Positions 4,882 through 25,061 of a stretch of 64,000 bases of DNA are shown here, piece after piece. The notes below the pieces were generated by a model that was not told where the DNA came from, searched no databases, and saw only the letters and a list, made by a program, of their open reading frames with translations. The DNA is taken from positions 34,383 through 98,382 of IMG/VR virus record IMGVR_UViG_3300005537_000022, one strand, 5' to 3'. Origin of the DNA: a virus. Position 1 is the stretch's first letter, and the number at the start of each line of letters is the position of its first letter. Position numbers and translations under genes: made by a program.

Positions 4882-7800
4882 TCAGCCCCTGATGCTGATC
4901 TTGCGGCCGGCGGCGGGCAGGAGCTGCGACGCGACCTGCCTGCCGATCTTCGCGGTCAGCTTGTCGATGTCGGAGTCGGACATGACGGTGTTGCCGTGCA
5001 CGTCGATCACCACCGTTATCCCGCCGCCGCCCCCGTAGCCGCCGCCTGCCGGGGCGACGGCGGAGGCCGCCAGCGCCGACCCTGCCGCGGCGCCGCCCGC
5101 GCCCAGCCCCGCCGTGGCCGACAGGGCGCTGCCCGCGACCCGGCGCGCCGCGCCGAGGATGTACGGGATGGAGGCGATGAGCCCGTTCCCGAGGCCCATG
5201 CCGAGGTACATGCCGTGCGGGTAGGTTTTCTTCGACGGGGAGGAGATGCCGAGCGCCGACCCGATGCCGCTGATGATCGACGACGCGAATCCCTCGATCT
5301 TGGACATCAGCCAGCCGGCCGCCCCGGAGATCCCGTTCCAGATGCCCTGCACGATGCCGGCGCCGATGGACACCATCTGCCCCGGGAGGCCGGACAGCCA
5401 GCCGAGGATCTTGCCGGGCAGCGACGAGTACCAGGCCAGGAACCTCGTCCCGGCGTTCCAGACCGCAGACGCGGCCCCGGCGATCCACCGGCCGAACATG
5501 CCCGGCAGGCCGGTGAACCAGGAGAGCACGTGCTGCACGAACTGGACGCCGTCGGAGAACCAGTGCTTGATGTCGTCCCAGTGCCTGACGATCTGCGTGA
5601 CGGCCAGGCCGAGCGGCCCGGCGACCAGCCCGACGATCAGCGTCCAATGCGACTTGACGAAAGATATTACGTCAGAGATAATTTTCGAAATAAAGTCGTA
5701 GACATCATCCCACGCGACCTCGACGCCGTGCACGATATCGTGCCAGTGCGTGACGATCTCGTAGACGGCGCCGGCGACGGCGGCGACCACGAGCCCGATC
5801 CCGAGCAGCATCACCGCGTTCGCCGCCACCCACGCCGCTGCCGTGGCCAGGGCCCCGGCGATGTTCCCCGCGACGACGACCGCGACCTTCGCCAGGCTCT
5901 GCGCTGCCCAGACCGCGCCCTGGACGGCCATCCCGGCCGCCGACGCCGCCCACGAAGCCGCCGTCGCAGCGGCCCCGGCGACGTTCCGCGCCACGACCAC
6001 GGCGACCTTCGCGACGGACTGCGCCGCCCAGGAAACGCCGGCCGCGGCCTGCTGCCCCATGGACGCCAGCCACGACGACGACGACTCCGCCGCGCCCTCC
6101 TCGTTCGCGACGGCGACCGCCCCCGCGTCGGCCTCCTGCTCGGCCGCCGCCGCGTCCGCCGCGGCGGCCTGCTCGCCGGAGGACTCCCCGGAGATGATCC
6201 CGAGCTTCTTCAGCAGGCCCATCGCCGCATTGGCGGCCTTGCCGACGTCGTCGATGGCGCCCTTGACCGCCTTGTAGGCTTTCGCGGCCCCGGCGATCAC
6301 CGCGATCGTCGCGGCGATCGCGGCCACGCCGACGAACAGGATCTCGGTCAGCGTCTTGTTCTTCGCCGTCCACTCGGCGATCGGGATGACCACCTTCGTG
6401 ACCGCCGACAGGATGGCGGTCACCGCAGGGAGGAGCGCGGTGCCGATCGCGATCCCGGTGTTCTCCACCCCGGTCTTCGCCTGGTCGAGCTTGAAGTTGA
6501 ACGTGGACTGGATCTTGCCCCAGTTGTCGACGGTGTCGCCGCCCTTGCGGGCCGCCGCCGCCACGGTCGCCGCGTTGTGCTGGAACGTCGACAGCCGGCC
6601 GCCGGTCAGCATCAGGGCGGTGGTCAGCCCGGTGGTGCCGCCCATCGCCTTGTACATGGCCTGCGTGTACGTCTGGCCCAGTGCCCCGGAGTGCTGCTTC
6701 GCCGCCGTGGCGACCATGTTCAGGGTGGCGGCCAGGCCCCGCTTGCCCATGTTCTTCGACAGGTCCGTGGCGGACAGGCCGAGCGCGCCCAGTTCCTTCT
6801 GCGCGACCTTATTCGGCGACTGGAGCGAGAGAATCGTGTGCCGTAGGTCCTGCGTGGCTTGCTGGGCGGACATGTTCTGCGCCGTCATCGTGGCCAGCGC
6901 GCCGCCCACGTCGGAGAAGCGGATCTTCGCGGCGGCGGCGACCGGGGCGACGTTGCCGAGCGAGGACGCGAGATCCTGCATCCGCATGTCGCCCGCGCCC
7001 ACGGTGGCGATGAGCTGGTTCATCATCGACGCCGCGTAATGCGTCTGCTTCCCGGCGTTGCTGCTGGTCATGCCGTAGGCGTTGAGGGTGCCGGTGAGGG
7101 TCTTGCCGATCGTGTCGAGGTCGGCGCCGCCGACCCGCGCGCCCTCGGCGGCGATCTTCAGCACGGCCAGGCCCTGCGCCCCGTGATAGCCGGCGCTCTC
7201 CACGTGATACATGGCGGCGGTGATCGCCTCGGCTGAGGTGCCGGTTGCCGTGGACACGTTCAGGATCCCGGCCCGGACCATGGCGAGGTTCCCCTGGGTC
7301 TCGCCCGCGTCCGTCACGAGATGCTGCGTGGAGTCCTGGAAGTTGCCGGCCGCCTTGACCATCACGCCGGCGGCGACCCCGAGGCCCAGCGCCATGATCC
7401 CGGCGATCTTCCCGGCCTTGCCGAAGCTGGCGCCCGACTTCTCGCCCGCCTTGCCGGCCCGGGTCTGCGCGGCGGCGGCCTCGTCGTTCTTCGCCGCTAC
7501 CGCCTTGGCGGTGTCCGCCTGGAGCTTCTCCGCACCGGAGAGGGTCTTCTGCGCGGCGGCGTTCTCCTTGGACGCGGCGGCGAGCCGTTCGTTCGCCTCC
7601 ATGAGCCGGTACTGCGCGGCGACGTCGTCGTCCGCGGCCCCGGCCGCTGCCTGGTGCGCTTCCAGGAGGCCGCGCTCGGCGTCGGCCTGCTCTTCCGCCG
7701 TCCGGGTGGCCCTTTCCTGGGCCGCGCTCACCCTCGCGGAGGCCAGTTCCAGCGCGTCGGCACCGGAGGCGGTCTTGAGCAGCGACTCGTCGATCGAGTC

Positions 7801-21430: not shown

Positions 21431-21931
21431 ATGACCGACAGTCCCGCAGAGATCCCCGCCGCCTTCAGCGGGCGGGTGAACGGCTCCCTGACTTCCGCGC
21501 AGCAGACCGCCGAGAACACGGCCCGGATCGCCGCCCTGGTCGCCCAGATCCCCCAGGCGATCGGGATGATGCTCGCCCAGGTGGCCCGCGCCATACCCTC
21601 GGGCCACCTGTGCGCCACGTGCCTGGCGAACAGGATCGCCTGGGAAGTGGCGAACCGTTCCCACGTCGAGGCGGCTATCGCCGGCGCGCGGGCGGCGCAC
21701 GGGCTCGCTGAAGGGGACCCGGTGCCGCCGGGGTTCGACCCGGCCCCGTTCCTGCCGGCGGACCTGCGGCCCGGCGCGGTGCGCGGCATGCCGCCGCTCA
21801 CGGCCGCCATCACCACGGTCGCCGGGACCGACACCTGCTCCGAGCACATTCCCGGCCGGGCCGGGGGCCGGACGCTGCTGGTCGCCTCCGGGGCGCTGTC
21901 CCCGTCGGGGATGGCGCGCTTCGGCACCTAG
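21431..21931 (+). CDS. Hypothetical protein with CxxC...CxxH
   Basis: GATAAT-7nt-ATG start; converges on MuF stop. Confidence 0.6.
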   Translation: MTDSPAEIPAAFSGRVNGSLTSAQQTAENTARIAALVAQIPQAIGMMLAQVARAIPSGHLCATCLANRIAWEVANRSHVEAAIAGARAAHGLAEGDPVPPGFDPAPFLPADLRPGAVRGMPPLTAAITTVAGTDTCSEHIPGRAGGRTLLVASGALSPSGMARFGT

Positions 21932-22734
21932 GCCGGGACTATCGCGCACCGGCAGCCGCCCGGGTGGGCCGGCGGGCACAGGTCGCCCGAAGGCCACTCG
22001 ATCCCGGCGGGACGGGGATCGGCGGCGGCATTGTCCAGGCACGCCTTGCAGGTCCGGGAGTCCTGTACGGCGGCCCACCGGAGCAGTCCCGCGCCGTTCG
22101 CCTGGTACCACTCCAGCGCGGCCAGGCCGCCCGCGACCGTGATCTGGGTGACGGCCAGCCCCTCGGCGTAAGCCCCGTCCGCCACGGCGGTCTCCAGCAT
22201 GCCCGCGAGCTCGGACGCGGCCGTGTCCGGATCCCAGCCGGCGAGCACGCGGGAGACTACGTTCAGGTAGCCGTCCCCGATCGCCTGGGCGATGCCCGGC
22301 CCTTCCCCGCCGCCGGAGCCGCCGGCGAGCGAGGCGAGCAGCGCGGCCAGGCCGAGCGCCTCCGCCAGCCGCCTCGCCTTCGCCGTGTCTCCCGGGGTCC
22401 AGCCGGCCGTGTCCGCGTCGGCGCTGCCCGCCATCGCGGCCTGCGCCGACGTCCCGCCGATCGCCAGGGCGTCGGCGGCGATCCGCTCGGCCAGGTCCCC
22501 GGCCGGGACCGTGATCCCCTGCGACCGCAGCCAGGCGAGAGCCGCCGCGTTCCGCTCCCGCTTGCCGGGCGCGCTGCCGTCCTGATCCGGGTGGCCGGCC
22601 GTGTACGCGGAGGCGATGGCGTCCAGTTTCCCGCGCGAGAGCGCCTGCCGCGCCGCGGCGGTGACCTTCGGGGCCCACCAGGCGGCGGCGGCCAGGTCTA
22701 GCTTCCAGCCCGGCCAGTCACCAGGGCTTTTGGG
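21928..22734 (-). CDS. MuF-like minor head protein domain (probably translated as a frameshift fusion to portal)
   Basis: W.AVQDSRTC..C...PPAHPGGCRCAIVP C-terminus; no own start/RBS; frame entered at CCCAAAA. Confidence 0.85.
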   Translation of the reverse strand, partial: PKSPGDWPGWKLDLAAAAWWAPKVTAAARQALSRGKLDAIASAYTAGHPDQDGSAPGKRERNAAALAWLRSQGITVPAGDLAERIAADALAIGGTSAQAAMAGSADADTAGWTPGDTAKARRLAEALGLAALLASLAGGSGGGEGPGIAQAIGDGYLNVVSRVLAGWDPDTAASELAGMLETAVADGAYAEGLAVTQITVAGGLAALEWYQANGAGLLRWAAVQDSRTCKACLDNAAADPRPAGIEWPSGDLCPPAHPGGCRCAIVPA

Positions 22735-25061
22735 ACGGGCATCGCCGCCTTCACCGCGACGGTCTCTTCCGGCTCGCAGCCCAGCAGCGGCAGCACGTCG
22801 CCGAGGGAGGCGGCCAGCTCTTCCCGCAGCATCGGGTTGCCGGGCAGGTCGCACGGGTCAGCCCACATGATCGCCTCGACGGCGTCGCCGTCCGGGTCGT
22901 CCGGGTTCGGCACCACGGCACCGCCGCGGACGGGGACCGCGGCCTCGGACTCGGTCGTCCACACGATGCCCCGGTAGATGCCGTCCCCGGCCGTCCACTC
23001 GCCCGTCACCGAGCCGGGAGGGGGAACGGCCCCGGTTTCCTCTGCCCATTCGCGCCATGCGGCGCGCAGCGGGGACTCATCGCCCTCGACGTGCCCGCCG
23101 GGGAACTCGATCTTGCCTCCGGCCGGGTCGCCGGGGTCGAGCGCCCGCTGGATCATCAGGACGCGGCCGGTGTCGGCGGCGAGGACCGCGAGGCCCGCGA
23201 CCGCGACCTCGCCCGCGGCCTTGCGGACCGCGAGCCTTCCGTCGTCGTTGAGGTTGTGCGCCCAGACCCCTGGCACCGAGCGGAACTCGAAGTCCCGCCA
23301 CTCGCCATCCTTGCGGCGGGCCTTCGCGAACCGGCGGAATGCCCGCATCTCCTTGAGGACGGCCGTGCTGCGGACCGCATCCGCGTCCTCGTCATCGTCG
23401 TCATCGCCGGCGAGGTCGTAGGAGTAGATCCCCGTCTCCGCGGTGATCCCCGCGGAGGCGTTCCCGGCCGGGGCCGCGCCCTCGCCTTCCTTGGCGACGG
23501 GCTGGCCGGGCCCGGCCTCGTCGGCCGGCGTCATCTTCGGCTGCGGGGGCGGCGCCGGTGGCATCGCGGACTCGCCGAACTCCCGCTCGGCCAGCGACAT
23601 GACCTTGATCGGCGGGTTCGGCAGGACGCCCTCCGTGCCGCCGAAGACCGTCCGCGGCAGCTCCGCGCCTTCCTCGGGCAGCCCGTCCGCCGGGTCGACG
23701 TCGCCCGCGACGGCCAGCAGCGAGGAAACCGGGATGGGCCCGGCTCTCTCCGTGTAGATGAACCGGGGGATCGGCCGGGCGTCGGTCAGCCCGTAGCGCA
23801 TCTCGCGGATCTCGGACGGGCCGATGACGCCCATCTTCATGTACTTGTCGTCGGCGTTCGCCTGGTCTACGCGGTCGTCCTGCTCCTCGCCGAGGTCGAA
23901 CGCGAACTTGAGCGGAAGCTGCATGTCGTCTTGCAGGAAAGCGGTCAGGATGTCCTGCACGTGGTGGGCGAGCGGGAGGTCGCCGACGCGGTGCTGCACG
24001 TCGGCCTGCGACTCGCCGCTGCTGCGGTTCACGCTCTCGGTGAACCCGAGGTCGCTGGGGACCACGGAGTAGGCGGCGCACGTCTTGCGCATCAGGAACA
24101 AGCTGAACTTGTCGTCGAAGTCCTTCTCGCTGCTCCACGCGAACGACGAGCCGCCCGGGATCCACCGGATCTGGTGCTTGCCCTCCTGGTTGCCCAGCAT
24201 GAAGCCGTCCCAGTATTCCTGGAACTGCTCGATCTGCTCCGGGGTCCAGCTTTCGGGGGCGCCCGCGAAGGCGGCGGGCAGGTTCCCGGCGGTGAACCGC
24301 TGGAGGAAGTAGAGCTGGAACCGGATGTCGGTGTTGGCGTTGAGGAGGATGTCCTCCAGCGGCGCCCGGCCGTAAGCCGAGTCGTCCTGCGGGTCGTACG
24401 GCTCGTAGATCAGGTCGTCGCGGGTCAGCCAGTCCCAGGCCAGCCCGTTGACGTACTGGACGTAGGCGGGGGCGGGAGAGTCCGGGGGGTCGCCCCAGTA
24501 GTCGAGCAGCGGCGCGATCGTGGTGCCGTCGACGACCCTCAGGCCGACGCACCGGCCGGCCCGGTTCCGCATCCGGGCCAGGGTGCCGGCGTCGTAGGAC
24601 AGTACGCCCCTCATCCACTTGGCCAGCCACGGCTTGAACAGGGTCTTGCGGTCCGGCCGCTTCAGCGCGCGCATCCCGGCGGCGATGTCATCGGCGACGT
24701 CGCCGTCGTGGCCGTCGGCGGCGACGAGCTTCCAGTCCAGGCTGCGGAGGCTGGCGATCCTGTGGCGGATGCAGAGCTGGGCTACGTCGTAGGAGCCGAT
24801 CAGGCCCTTGAGCGTCTCGAAGCTGACCCGTTCGTGGGTGCGCGGCCGGGTGGCCACGTTGTACTGCGGGACGTACTCCTTGGACCGCGGGGTGCGGGAG
24901 AACCCGTCGTACGGCGCGATCGGCTCGCCTGGCGAGAACGGGGACGACGGGCCCATCTGGGCGCGTTCCTCGGCTGCCTCGATCGCGGGCGGGACGGAGC
25001 TGCCGAAGACCTTCGCGACAGGCACCGGCGCGGCGGCGGCGGCGCGGGAACGGACGCTCAT
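22698..25061 (-). CDS. Portal protein with C-terminal NUDIX hydrolase domain
   Basis: VDGTTI, YGRAPLE, YSVVPSDLG portal motifs; intact Nudix box GHVEGDESPLRAAWREWAEETG. Confidence 0.92.
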   Translation of the reverse strand: MSVRSRAAAAAPVPVAKVFGSSVPPAIEAAEERAQMGPSSPFSPGEPIAPYDGFSRTPRSKEYVPQYNVATRPRTHERVSFETLKGLIGSYDVAQLCIRHRIASLRSLDWKLVAADGHDGDVADDIAAGMRALKRPDRKTLFKPWLAKWMRGVLSYDAGTLARMRNRAGRCVGLRVVDGTTIAPLLDYWGDPPDSPAPAYVQYVNGLAWDWLTRDDLIYEPYDPQDDSAYGRAPLEDILLNANTDIRFQLYFLQRFTAGNLPAAFAGAPESWTPEQIEQFQEYWDGFMLGNQEGKHQIRWIPGGSSFAWSSEKDFDDKFSLFLMRKTCAAYSVVPSDLGFTESVNRSSGESQADVQHRVGDLPLAHHVQDILTAFLQDDMQLPLKFAFDLGEEQDDRVDQANADDKYMKMGVIGPSEIREMRYGLTDARPIPRFIYTERAGPIPVSSLLAVAGDVDPADGLPEEGAELPRTVFGGTEGVLPNPPIKVMSLAEREFGESAMPPAPPPQPKMTPADEAGPGQPVAKEGEGAAPAGNASAGITAETGIYSYDLAGDDDDDEDADAVRSTAVLKEMRAFRRFAKARRKDGEWRDFEFRSVPGVWAHNLNDDGRLAVRKAAGEVAVAGLAVLAADTGRVLMIQRALDPGDPAGGKIEFPGGHVEGDESPLRAAWREWAEETGAVPPPGSVTGEWTAGDGIYRGIVWTTESEAAVPVRGGAVVPNPDDPDGDAVEAIMWADPCDLPGNPMLREELAASLGDVLPLLGCEPEETVAVKAAMPVPKALVTGRAGS

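Follow-up and report, generated by a model that had tools for sequence, protein, structure and literature searches.

A conserved slippery heptamer suggests programmed -1 frameshifting between portal and MuF in a family of actinobacterial phages

Organization of the portal/MuF locus

The window, the whole 64,000-nt stretch of viral DNA analysed here, comes from a phage of high-GC actinobacteria (IMG/VR record IMGVR_UViG_3300005537_000022). The gene order at the locus is terminase, portal, MuF. The portal-NUDIX ORF lies on the minus strand (25061-22698), encodes 787 aa in the zero frame, and ends with a TAG stop (22700-22698). It consists of a portal domain, a linker, a NUDIX domain, and a short tail ending in ...MPVPKALVTGRAGS. 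The portal domain (aa 97-421) matched PF04860 (Phage_portal) with 56.2 bits, above the curated cut-off of 39.1; the NUDIX domain (aa 624-745) matched PF00293 with 55 bits, above the cut-off of 21.1. The Nudix box, as read from the translation, is intact (GGHVEGDESPLRAAWREWAEETG), and is consistent with GX5EX7REUXEEXG. A tRNA-Asp predicted by ARAGORN inside the portal gene was judged spurious.

The 3' end of the portal gene reads ...GTC CCA AAA GCC CTG GTG ACT GGC CGG GCT GGA AGC TAG. The original prediction placed a -1 slip site at this junction, and the heptamer was confirmed: C CCA AAA lies at 22734-22728 on the minus strand, fits the X XXY YYZ pattern, and is followed by the portal stop 30 nt further on. 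It is read as GTC CCA AAA in the portal frame and as CCC AAA A in the MuF frame. The portal and MuF frames overlap over 160 nt (22698-22857, minus strand), from the upstream TGA of the MuF frame (22857-22855) to the portal TAG. These two stops bound the region, so any change of frame must occur within it. As expected of a canonical -1 site, the heptamer is positioned in the zero frame inside the ORF overlap; it is the sole slippery heptamer there, and a GTG at 22854 is the sole start-like codon. The codons of the heptamer are rare, as had been proposed: CCA accounts for 4 of the 69 Pro codons of the window's portal gene, and the heptamer AAA is the sole AAA among its 25 Lys codons.

The MuF segment occupies the -1 frame on the minus strand (21928-22734), with 268 codons from CCC AAA AGC... 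to a stop at 21930-21928. Its translation from 22734 runs PKSPGDWPGWKLDL...HPGGCRCAIVPA. The predicted slip product would contain 778 + 266 = 1044 aa, close to the fusion of roughly 1040 aa that had been estimated. The window copy scored 22 bits against PF04233 (Phage_Mu_F / SPP1 gp7), below the cut-off of 29.6; of the 21 aligned homologs, 17 matched this family, the best of them at E = 1.4e-13, and the PHROG minor head and head morphogenesis families were matched at 1e-6. No match was found among the PDB sequences searched with the MuF profile. The segment lies directly after the portal gene and contains the conserved Cys/His core of the MuF family (C..C...HP.CRC, C-terminal), in which C223, C226, H251, R256, and C257 are invariant in the homolog alignment.

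Conservation of the slippery heptamer

The searches for relatives included a genome scan with a 10-sequence portal alignment. Loci derived from the motif are pre-selected for the heptamer, and only the protein-derived sets test its conservation. The test set comprised relatives that were recovered through protein patterns away from the junction and in which the P/G-K site is still present. All 38 of these relatives keep X XXY YYZ, 35 as CCCAAAA and three as GGGAAAA. The residue before the heptamer is variable, with 13 different residues across these relatives; the third base of the preceding codon is C before CCA in 35/35 and G before GGA in 3/3. Gene-wide, CCA makes up 4.7% of the Pro codons and AAA 11.6% of the Lys codons in these genes. 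The conservation thus concerns synonymous positions, and it reaches portals of 24-46% identity. This is a strongly positive outcome for the conservation of CCCAAAA that the original prediction would lead one to expect. The same slip site appears to be common to about 80 related phages and prophages, 44 of which were selected by the heptamer. The four loci that have lost the heptamer (L160, L164, L167, and L168) are all in frame.

Two cultured phages belong to the conserved set. The gp3 proteins of the Arthrobacter phages Mufasa8 and Sonali are 39-46% identical to the portal ORF of the window; both are in-frame portal-MuF fusions, which carry C CCA AAA G and a downstream hairpin. A distant fused portal-MuF was found in the Brevundimonas phage Polewnik. 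Its junction has no in-frame heptamer, which suggests that the C CCA AAA site is specific to the actinobacterial family. Among cultured phages, there was no match to the window region by megablast, or to the window MuF part alone by tblastn. Searches with the Sonali MuF and a divergent portal (L066) recovered only Sonali, Mufasa8, and distant phages, so these searches yielded no cultured representative of the -1 arrangement.

Frame relationship between portal and MuF

The MuF frame was compared with the heptamer frame at 80 junctions verified with a MuF HMM, 44 of which came from a frame-blind motif scan. In-frame fused homologs, whose existence bears directly on the original prediction, account for 62 junctions; 18 are at -1, and none at +1. 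A nineteenth -1 case (L161) lies beyond the verified set. The 19 -1 loci are from independent samples and include four separately sequenced Kitasatospora isolates. The spacers of the -1 loci are 5, 8, 11, 14, and 20 nt long, all equal to 2 modulo 3. Two further loci (L073 and L150) have MuF at +1 of the portal frame, where the portal reads CCC AAA AGT; these do not fit a simple -1 model.

A tree of the portal-MuF loci requires at least five switches between the two arrangements. Among the -1 clades, one joins the window to L004 (80% identity) and a deep one holds L145, L096, L037, and L066; the protein divergence within the -1 clades ranges from 20% to more than 60%. The MuF ORFs in the -1 loci are intact, and MuF dN/dS in -1 pairs is 0.3-0.6. 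Together, these data show that the -1 state is real and stable.

The in-frame loci have a feature of their own. Their -1 frame stops at a median of 6.5 codons past the site, compared with 65 at control positions; a -1 stop falls within 4 codons in 41% of the in-frame loci and in 5.7% of the controls, and in 18 in-frame loci it comes 3 codons after the site. The early stop implies that slippage in these relatives would yield a truncated product. Two other variations of the region were seen. In contig L011, the NUDIX region is interrupted by an unrelated frame break, and L013 has a 2H phosphoesterase domain instead of NUDIX between the portal and the slip site.

Candidate stimulatory elements

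A canonical -1 site would be expected to have a stimulatory RNA structure 5-9 nt downstream or an SD-like element before it. In the window, a candidate stimulator, the hairpin GGCCGGGCUGG-AAG-CUAG.ACCUGGCC, lies 12 nt after the heptamer (22690-22715, minus strand). This hairpin (GGCCGGG...CCTGGCC, -16.2 kcal/mol) overlaps the WPGWKLDLA codons. The original prediction was thus right about its presence and distance. Statistically, the hairpin is not distinctive: compared with shuffled sequence, z was -1.4 for the 38 nt after the site and -0.6 for 75 nt, which is unremarkable for the composition, and the hairpin is not significant evidence on its own. Many relatives have stable hairpins beginning 1-10 nt downstream of the site. 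One 7-bp stem, located 5 nt downstream, shows compensatory changes at three pairs among few sequences; in Sonali and Mufasa8, CCCTCC-5nt-GGAGGG lies 8 nt past the heptamer. The candidate stimulators are not homologous across the family. By eye, the hairpin energies of -1 and in-frame loci are both roughly -33 kcal/mol, which gives no clue to efficiency.

Upstream, AAGGCGG (22745-22751, minus strand) falls in the codons of a conserved K-A motif and ends exactly 10 nt before the heptamer. The same 10-nt spacing is found only in close relatives (L004, L015, and L020), and the spacing is 4-22 nt in other relatives. Speculatively, this element could possibly act as a Shine-Dalgarno-like upstream stimulator.

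Alternative explanations

Programmed -1 frameshifting would by far best explain the comparative data. Three other explanations were weighed against it. It is unlikely that the CCCAAAAG motif owes its conservation to something besides slippage, for instance to a pause in translation ahead of the MuF domain or to the binding of a nucleic-acid ligand, with MuF produced in the -1 loci by, for example, termination-reinitiation. Rare codons can indeed serve as pause sites, and no downstream stimulator of the window could be shown to be special. However, the GGGAAAA variant swaps P for G, yet keeps X XXY YYZ and the matching preceding base. In the -1 frame, the N-terminal WPGW motif of MuF (22716-22705) precedes the portal stop, and reinitiation past that stop cannot yield it; pausing also leaves the close -1 stop of the in-frame loci unexplained.

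It is very unlikely that MuF is a separate gene that overlaps the portal end and is translated from GTG 22854 or from a non-canonical start, with no recoding. This GTG shares the MuF frame and precedes the heptamer by 120 nt, and a GC content of 71% commonly brings long overlaps and open stretches in other frames. However, it is the only ATG, GTG, or TTG between the upstream stop and the conserved MuF N-terminus, it is preceded by TCATGTGGGCTGACCC with no Shine-Dalgarno sequence, and its use would lengthen the protein by about 40 Arg-rich residues resembling off-frame translation. In L004, L005, and L068, no start codon was found before or near WPGW. A MuF-frame TGA lies 3-6 nt before the heptamer in five -1 loci (L004, L034, L045, L068, and L096) and in the Kitasatospora loci, and the conserved WPGW has no start codon ahead of it. 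A separate start would also leave unexplained why the heptamer is conserved at synonymous sites and why MuF was never found at +1 among the verified junctions. These observations agree with the original view that MuF lacks both a ribosome-binding site and a separate start; as is typical of canonical -1 sites, the second ORF occupies the -1 frame and carries no initiation signal.

There is hardly any chance that the break in frame arose from faulty sequencing or assembly, or from an indel that recently inactivated the gene of a decaying element, and that the gene is truly or ancestrally a plain in-frame fusion: although most relatives are such fusions, the window derives from a metagenomic virus record, and the L011 contig has its unrelated frame break, the in-frame relatives share an A4 run rather than A5, the 19 independent loci are always at -1 across diverged clades, no MuF ORF among them is disrupted, and spacer lengths vary between them in steps of multiples of 3. 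A homopolymer read error, which the original prediction had named as the thing that might hide a plain fusion, was rejected on the same A4 run; the occurrence of the -1 arrangement in independent metagenomes as well as in the four Kitasatospora isolates also argues against it. RNA polymerase slippage needs runs far longer than four A's, and transcriptional slippage was rejected on run length.

A recoded portal-MuF gene

The portal and MuF coding regions are very probably one recoded gene, expressed through a programmed -1 frameshift at C CCA AAA. In the window phage, most ribosomes would end at the TAG (22700-22698) and make the 787-aa portal. A fraction of ribosomes would slip back one base at the heptamer, where the P-site Pro-tRNA would re-pair from CCA to CCC and the A-site Lys-tRNA from AAA to AAA. 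The slipped ribosomes would read on in the -1 frame and make the 1044-aa portal-NUDIX-MuF protein. Since MuF appears to have no initiation site of its own, slippage would be the only way for the window phage to make it.

The slip site was probably ancestral to a large family of portal-MuF genes in actinobacterial phages and prophages. In most members of this family, MuF is in frame, and a slip would lead to a nearby -1 stop and a portal without MuF; in Sonali and Mufasa8, the product would be a truncated portal of about 750 aa (about 748 aa, ending in ...NPKSAYPSVLEG) next to the fusion of 995 aa. About a quarter of the family, including the window, have the inverted arrangement, in which the slip would add MuF. 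With either arrangement, one gene could supply both MuF-bearing and MuF-free portal subunits. In portal proteins, the C-terminus points into the capsid, and MuF proteins, SPP1 gp7 among them, are internal proteins of low copy number that bind the portal. A mixed portal ring may be the purpose of the slip. The original proposal that a minority of the subunits carry MuF is plausible for the window phage. It does not hold as a general rule, because about three quarters of the relatives are in-frame fusions, in which the slip would remove MuF.

Should a single site serve the two arrangements, the product ratio would invert between close relatives. This would need a roughly intermediate slippage efficiency, or a tolerance of either ratio. 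A broader view, to which we give an even chance, is that the site is an ancient bidirectional recoding switch, which determines the number of MuF-bearing subunits among the twelve of the portal. One-base changes of the spacer would flip lineages between the arrangements (five or more flips in the sampled tree), the same octamer, read in a third register as CCC AAA AGU in L073 and L150, may drive a +1 slip, and the enzyme domain would be present in both products.

If the frameshift is real, it would be a genetic mechanism for fixing the copy number of MuF as an internal portal-bound protein, and it would explain the abundance of portal-MuF 'fusions' in actinophages. It would also affect annotation. 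Where portal and MuF are now called as split genes, as in metagenomic phages and in prophages of Kitasatospora and Streptomyces, the two would be one recoded gene, and a second, shorter protein may be encoded by in-frame fusions like Sonali gp3. One site with apparently opposite polarities in close relatives would be an unusual natural experiment on the evolution of frameshift efficiency and product ratios. Two cultured SEA-PHAGES phages, along with several lysogens that can be cultured, make the model directly testable.

Comparison with known systems

The documented frameshifts of tailed phages concern tail chaperones, capsid proteins, and tail proteins, and the portal/MuF pair would be a new addition. 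No report of a programmed frameshift in a portal gene was found in the literature searched, and the word 'portal' is absent from the available portion of the recoding review (PMC5009743, 2016). The G/GT frameshift of the lambda-like phage tail assembly chaperones (Xu, Hendrix and Duda 2004, cited by PMC7302621) resembles the portal/MuF case in several features. Both involve a conserved -1 X XXY YYZ slip in a phage virion operon, two proteins with a common N-terminus and a downstream ORF without its own start, and a site that is kept despite diverging protein sequences. They differ in that G/GT are tail chaperones, whereas the window pair would act at the head vertex; moreover, most homologs of the window are in-frame fusions that keep the site, and the slip would shorten the product as often as lengthen it.

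A 'portal and MuF-like fusion' has been annotated for Sonali gp3 and for the Microbacterium clusters EA3/5/8 and EB (PMC7302621). These share the domain order portal-(cargo)-MuF in a single ORF, and Sonali and Mufasa8 are true homologs of the window gene. The annotated fusions were recorded as simple fusions, and frameshifting was not mentioned.

Frameshifted capsid proteins are described for T3/T7 gene 10, Lactobacillus phage A2, and the Listeria phages A118/A500 in the recoding review (PMC5009743). In these cases, as in the proposed model, a head structural protein is made in two C-terminal forms by -1 slippage; both forms are incorporated in the virion. They add a decoration-type domain to the major capsid protein, whereas here a portal and an internal minor head protein would be joined. 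The slip site of phage A2 is reportedly also C CCA AAA.

In dnaX, a -1 slip meets a near-immediate stop and gives a shorter product without the C-terminal domains. This is a cellular replication gene with the heptamer A AAA AAG, and its stimulators are proven; the evidence for portal-MuF, by contrast, is comparative. The window may share with it the SD-like element 10 nt upstream of the site. Like the E. coli dnaX tau/gamma system, which is covered in the recoding review (PMC5009743), the in-frame relatives would meet an almost immediate stop after the slip, as at the 18 loci with a stop at 3 codons, and the shorter product would be a dnaX-like portal without MuF.

Portal-NUDIX and MuF coding regions

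The window derives from an IMG/VR virus record of 98,382 bases, rated complete by CheckV. The portal-NUDIX ORF (787 aa; 25061-22698, minus strand) is the next after the large terminase (27455-25791, minus strand; PHROG terminase match). It matches PF04860 (56.2 bits) and has a C-terminal NUDIX domain (PF00293, 55 bits). Its 3' end reads GTC CCA AAA GCC CTG GTG ACT GGC CGG GCT GGA AGC TAG, which contains the putative slip heptamer C CCA AAA (22734-22728, minus strand). In this portal gene, CCA accounts for 4 of 69 Pro codons and AAA for 1 of 25 Lys codons, the one in the heptamer. ARAGORN also called a 96-nt tRNA-Asp antisense within the gene (24492-24587, plus strand), which is probably a false positive.

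Read in the -1 frame from CCC AAA AGC at 22734 (minus strand), the translation starts with PKSPGDWPGWKLDL and finishes with HPGGCRCAIVPA at 21931. This segment matches the PHROG minor head and head morphogenesis families. Its PF04233 score is 22 bits, under the cut-off of 29.6; 17 of 21 aligned MuF homologs match PF04233 (best E-value 1.4e-13). On the PHROG matches and the PF04233 matches of the homologs, the segment is assigned to the MuF-type minor head proteins. The MuF frame is open over 123 nt 5' of the heptamer, where the sole start-like codon is a GTG at 22854 that lacks a Shine-Dalgarno sequence; a start there would add an Arg-rich, off-frame leader to MuF. The predicted product of a slip at the heptamer has 1044 aa. 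The original prediction had described the portal end, the heptamer and the -1 MuF frame accurately, as read directly from the window; its view that MuF has no ribosome-binding site or start of its own also holds, and its fusion of roughly 1040 aa agrees with the computed length.

Among isolate genomes, the closest relatives are prophages in Kitasatospora, Streptomyces, Streptacidiphilus, and Catenulispora, which makes a host in the Streptomycetaceae or a neighbouring group probable.

Conservation of the putative slip site

IMG/VR was scanned with peptide patterns drawn from the body of the portal and avoiding the junction, which gave 30 loci (29-79% identity). NNC CCA AAA stands directly before the MuF motif W-[PH]-G-W in all loci reaching the junction except L024, whose GCG GGA AAA likewise fits X XXY YYZ. 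L013 was rejected as an exception: CGC CCA AAA is present at 5352, and an antisense HNH endonuclease gene has been inserted after it. The cultured Arthrobacter phages Sonali and Mufasa8 have AAC CCA AAA G and TTC CCA AAA G at the junction, respectively. A second scan, independent of the first, covered one genome per prokaryotic species and yielded 23 loci: MuF is in frame with CCCAAAA in 10, in frame with GGGAAAA in 2, in the -1 arrangement with CCCAAAA in 4, and in frame without heptamer or P-K in 4; the other 3 have no usable junction. The Streptomyces prophages L160, L164, L167, and L168 are in-frame portal-MuF fusions with an acidic linker in place, lacking both P-K and heptamer, and serve as natural "no slip" controls.

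In the pooled protein-found sets, the slip pattern occurs at 38 junctions. The check set by the original prediction, conservation of the heptamer in relatives, thereby has a positive outcome. It is preceded by 13 different residues. The codon before CCA ends in C (35/35), and that before GGA ends in G (3/3). Over whole genes, CCA makes up 4.7% of Pro codons and AAA 11.6% of Lys codons. Three observations assign the constraint at this site to RNA rather than protein: a change from P to G is tolerated with the pattern retained, its first base follows the second and third, and lineages without the pattern have also lost P-K.

Frame relation and persistence of the -1 arrangement

Forty-five portal/MuF loci were added by a frame-blind search for the motif CCCAAAA, 1-31 nt, TGGCMNGGNTGG; portal identity to the window was as low as 24-27% in some. 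After removal of duplicates and checking of each junction with a MuF HMM, 80 junctions were available: MuF is in the heptamer frame in 62, in -1 in 18, and in +1 in none. L161, outside this count, is a nineteenth -1 case. The spacers between heptamer and WPGW are 3, 6, ... 36 nt in the in-frame loci and 5, 8, 11, 14, or 20 nt in the -1 loci. Random indels or errors would predict equal +1 and -1 numbers, and would not be expected to concentrate immediately after a single heptamer of a 3-kb gene.

In five -1 loci (L004, L034, L045, L068, and L096), a MuF-frame TGA lies 3-6 nt 5' of the heptamer and the portal stop 24-51 nt 3' of it; the Kitasatospora loci have the same layout. No ATG, GTG, or TTG was found ahead of WPGW in these five. 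The conserved WPGW codons precede the portal stop, so that they cannot arise from reinitiation after it.

In a portal tree of 38 sequences, the two arrangements require 6 changes, and at least 5 changes are forced by well-supported branches. The window and L004 form a -1 pair (80% identity; spacers 11 and 20 nt), and L145, L096, L037, and L066 make up a deeply branching -1 clade (spacers 14 and 20 nt). The MuF ORFs of the -1 loci are intact (255-380 codons), with dN/dS of 0.3-0.6 (estimated with a method that yields too low a dS at this GC content). The -1 arrangement also occurs in four culture-collection Kitasatospora isolates, each representing a different species. It is therefore neither a sequencing artefact, such as a read error hiding an in-frame fusion, nor a recent pseudogene. 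With the slip pattern conserved and MuF never in +1 at the 80 junctions, the proposed joining of portal and MuF by a -1 slip in this phage is essentially right, and we consider it highly probable that the window MuF is reached via slippage at C CCA AAA.

Candidate stimulators

Many relatives have a stable hairpin beginning 1-10 nt 3' of the heptamer. One class (L014, L016, L017, L024, L025, L063, L075, and others) has a G+C stem of 7 bp located 5 nt 3' of the heptamer, with compensatory changes at three pairs (e.g. CCCCC/GGGGG vs CCUCC/GGAGG). In the deep -1 clade, the WPGW codons themselves form the 3' arm, with one compensatory pair. In Sonali and Mufasa8, CCCTCC-5nt-GGAGGG is located 8 nt downstream. 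The hairpin proposed for the window is present (22715-22690, minus strand), yet it is ordinary at 71% GC.

An SD-like AAGGCGG ends 10 nt 5' of the heptamer in the window, L004, L015, and L020; its role as an upstream stimulator is speculative, because its distance differs in other relatives. At 22745-22760 (minus strand) and the same position in relatives, [VILFW]-x-K-A is conserved 2-9 residues before P-K (VAKA, LEKA, VLKA, and similar). This could be a maturation-protease site releasing MuF, or could reflect the SD-like AAGGCGG.

Atypical relatives

In L073 (2366-2393, plus strand) and L150 (5545-5575, minus strand), the portal frame reads CCC AAA AGT, and MuF (CCA AAA GTx...WPGW) is +1 of it. 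An independent GTG start of MuF is possible, because in L073 a GTG GTG lies eight to nine codons upstream. It is also conceivable that Lys-tRNA slips +1 on AAA-A over a slow AGU codon; in the L073 portal, none of the 18 Ser codons is AGT.

Several loci differ in domain content. In L013 (4849-6130), the portal has a 2'-5' RNA ligase/2H phosphoesterase domain (PF13563, 36.8 bits) at the place of the NUDIX domain of the window; its antisense HNH gene (5371-6099; PF13392, 51 bits) lies between heptamer and MuF, and the forward ORF is open throughout. Big in-frame inserts occur within the portal domain of L027 (3562-4788), L031 (3988-5079), L019, and L022; from the matches of those in L027 (LAGLIDADG_3, 24.5 bits) and L031 (weak Hint match), the inserts look like inteins. 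The MuF ORF runs 540-950 codons past the heptamer in L018 (6121-6936), L027, L073, L078, L081, L108, and L150, vs about 260-290 in most loci; the extra C-terminal cargo of L018 gave only a sub-threshold PI3_PI4_kinase match. L011, otherwise in frame, has a second frame break in the NUDIX region (5121-5169) with no evident slippery site; an assembly error or an indel would account for it.

In-frame relatives and comparison with known systems

In-frame fused homologs, for which the original prediction proposed a search, exist: portal, NUDIX, and MuF share one frame in gp3 of Sonali (995 aa; annotation "portal and MuF-like fusion protein") and in gp3 of Mufasa8 (1000 aa). In the in-frame loci, the -1 frame stops at a median of 6.5 codons past the heptamer, vs 65 at control positions (same frame, same genes); a stop within 4 codons is found in 41% of loci vs 5.7% of controls. 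Eighteen in-frame loci read AAA AGN TGA. A slip in these relatives would give a portal with the enzyme domain and without MuF; the predicted short product of Sonali ends with NPKSAYPSVLEG. We lean towards the view that the in-frame relatives also slip to yield this truncated portal.

Were both arrangements served by a single site, the long-to-short product ratio would be expected to invert between sister lineages. Efficiency may be intermediate, both ratios may be tolerated, or efficiency may co-evolve with the arrangement; by eye, the folding energies of the -1 and in-frame groups look alike, with no sign of co-evolution. The picture is then no longer one of a frameshift-made fusion but of one gene with two products, in either polarity. 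As judged by sequence comparison, a slip site conserved in both in-frame and -1 members of one gene family provides stronger evidence than the window alone could.

Portal-MuF fusions have been reported in Microbacterium and Arthrobacter phages without mention of recoding (PMC7302621), and the PRFect paper raises MuF solely with regard to VIP2 fusions (PMC10885494). A 2016 review of recoding covers frameshifts of capsid, tail, and chaperone genes, and "portal" is absent from the portion of its text considered here (PMC5009743). Full-text searching found no report of a portal/MuF frameshift. The proposed mechanism would be a canonical tandem -1 slip; novelty appears to lie in the gene pair, in how widely the site is conserved, and in the occurrence of both polarities. 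The in-frame relatives would follow the same logic as dnaX tau/gamma, where the slip leads to the shorter product.
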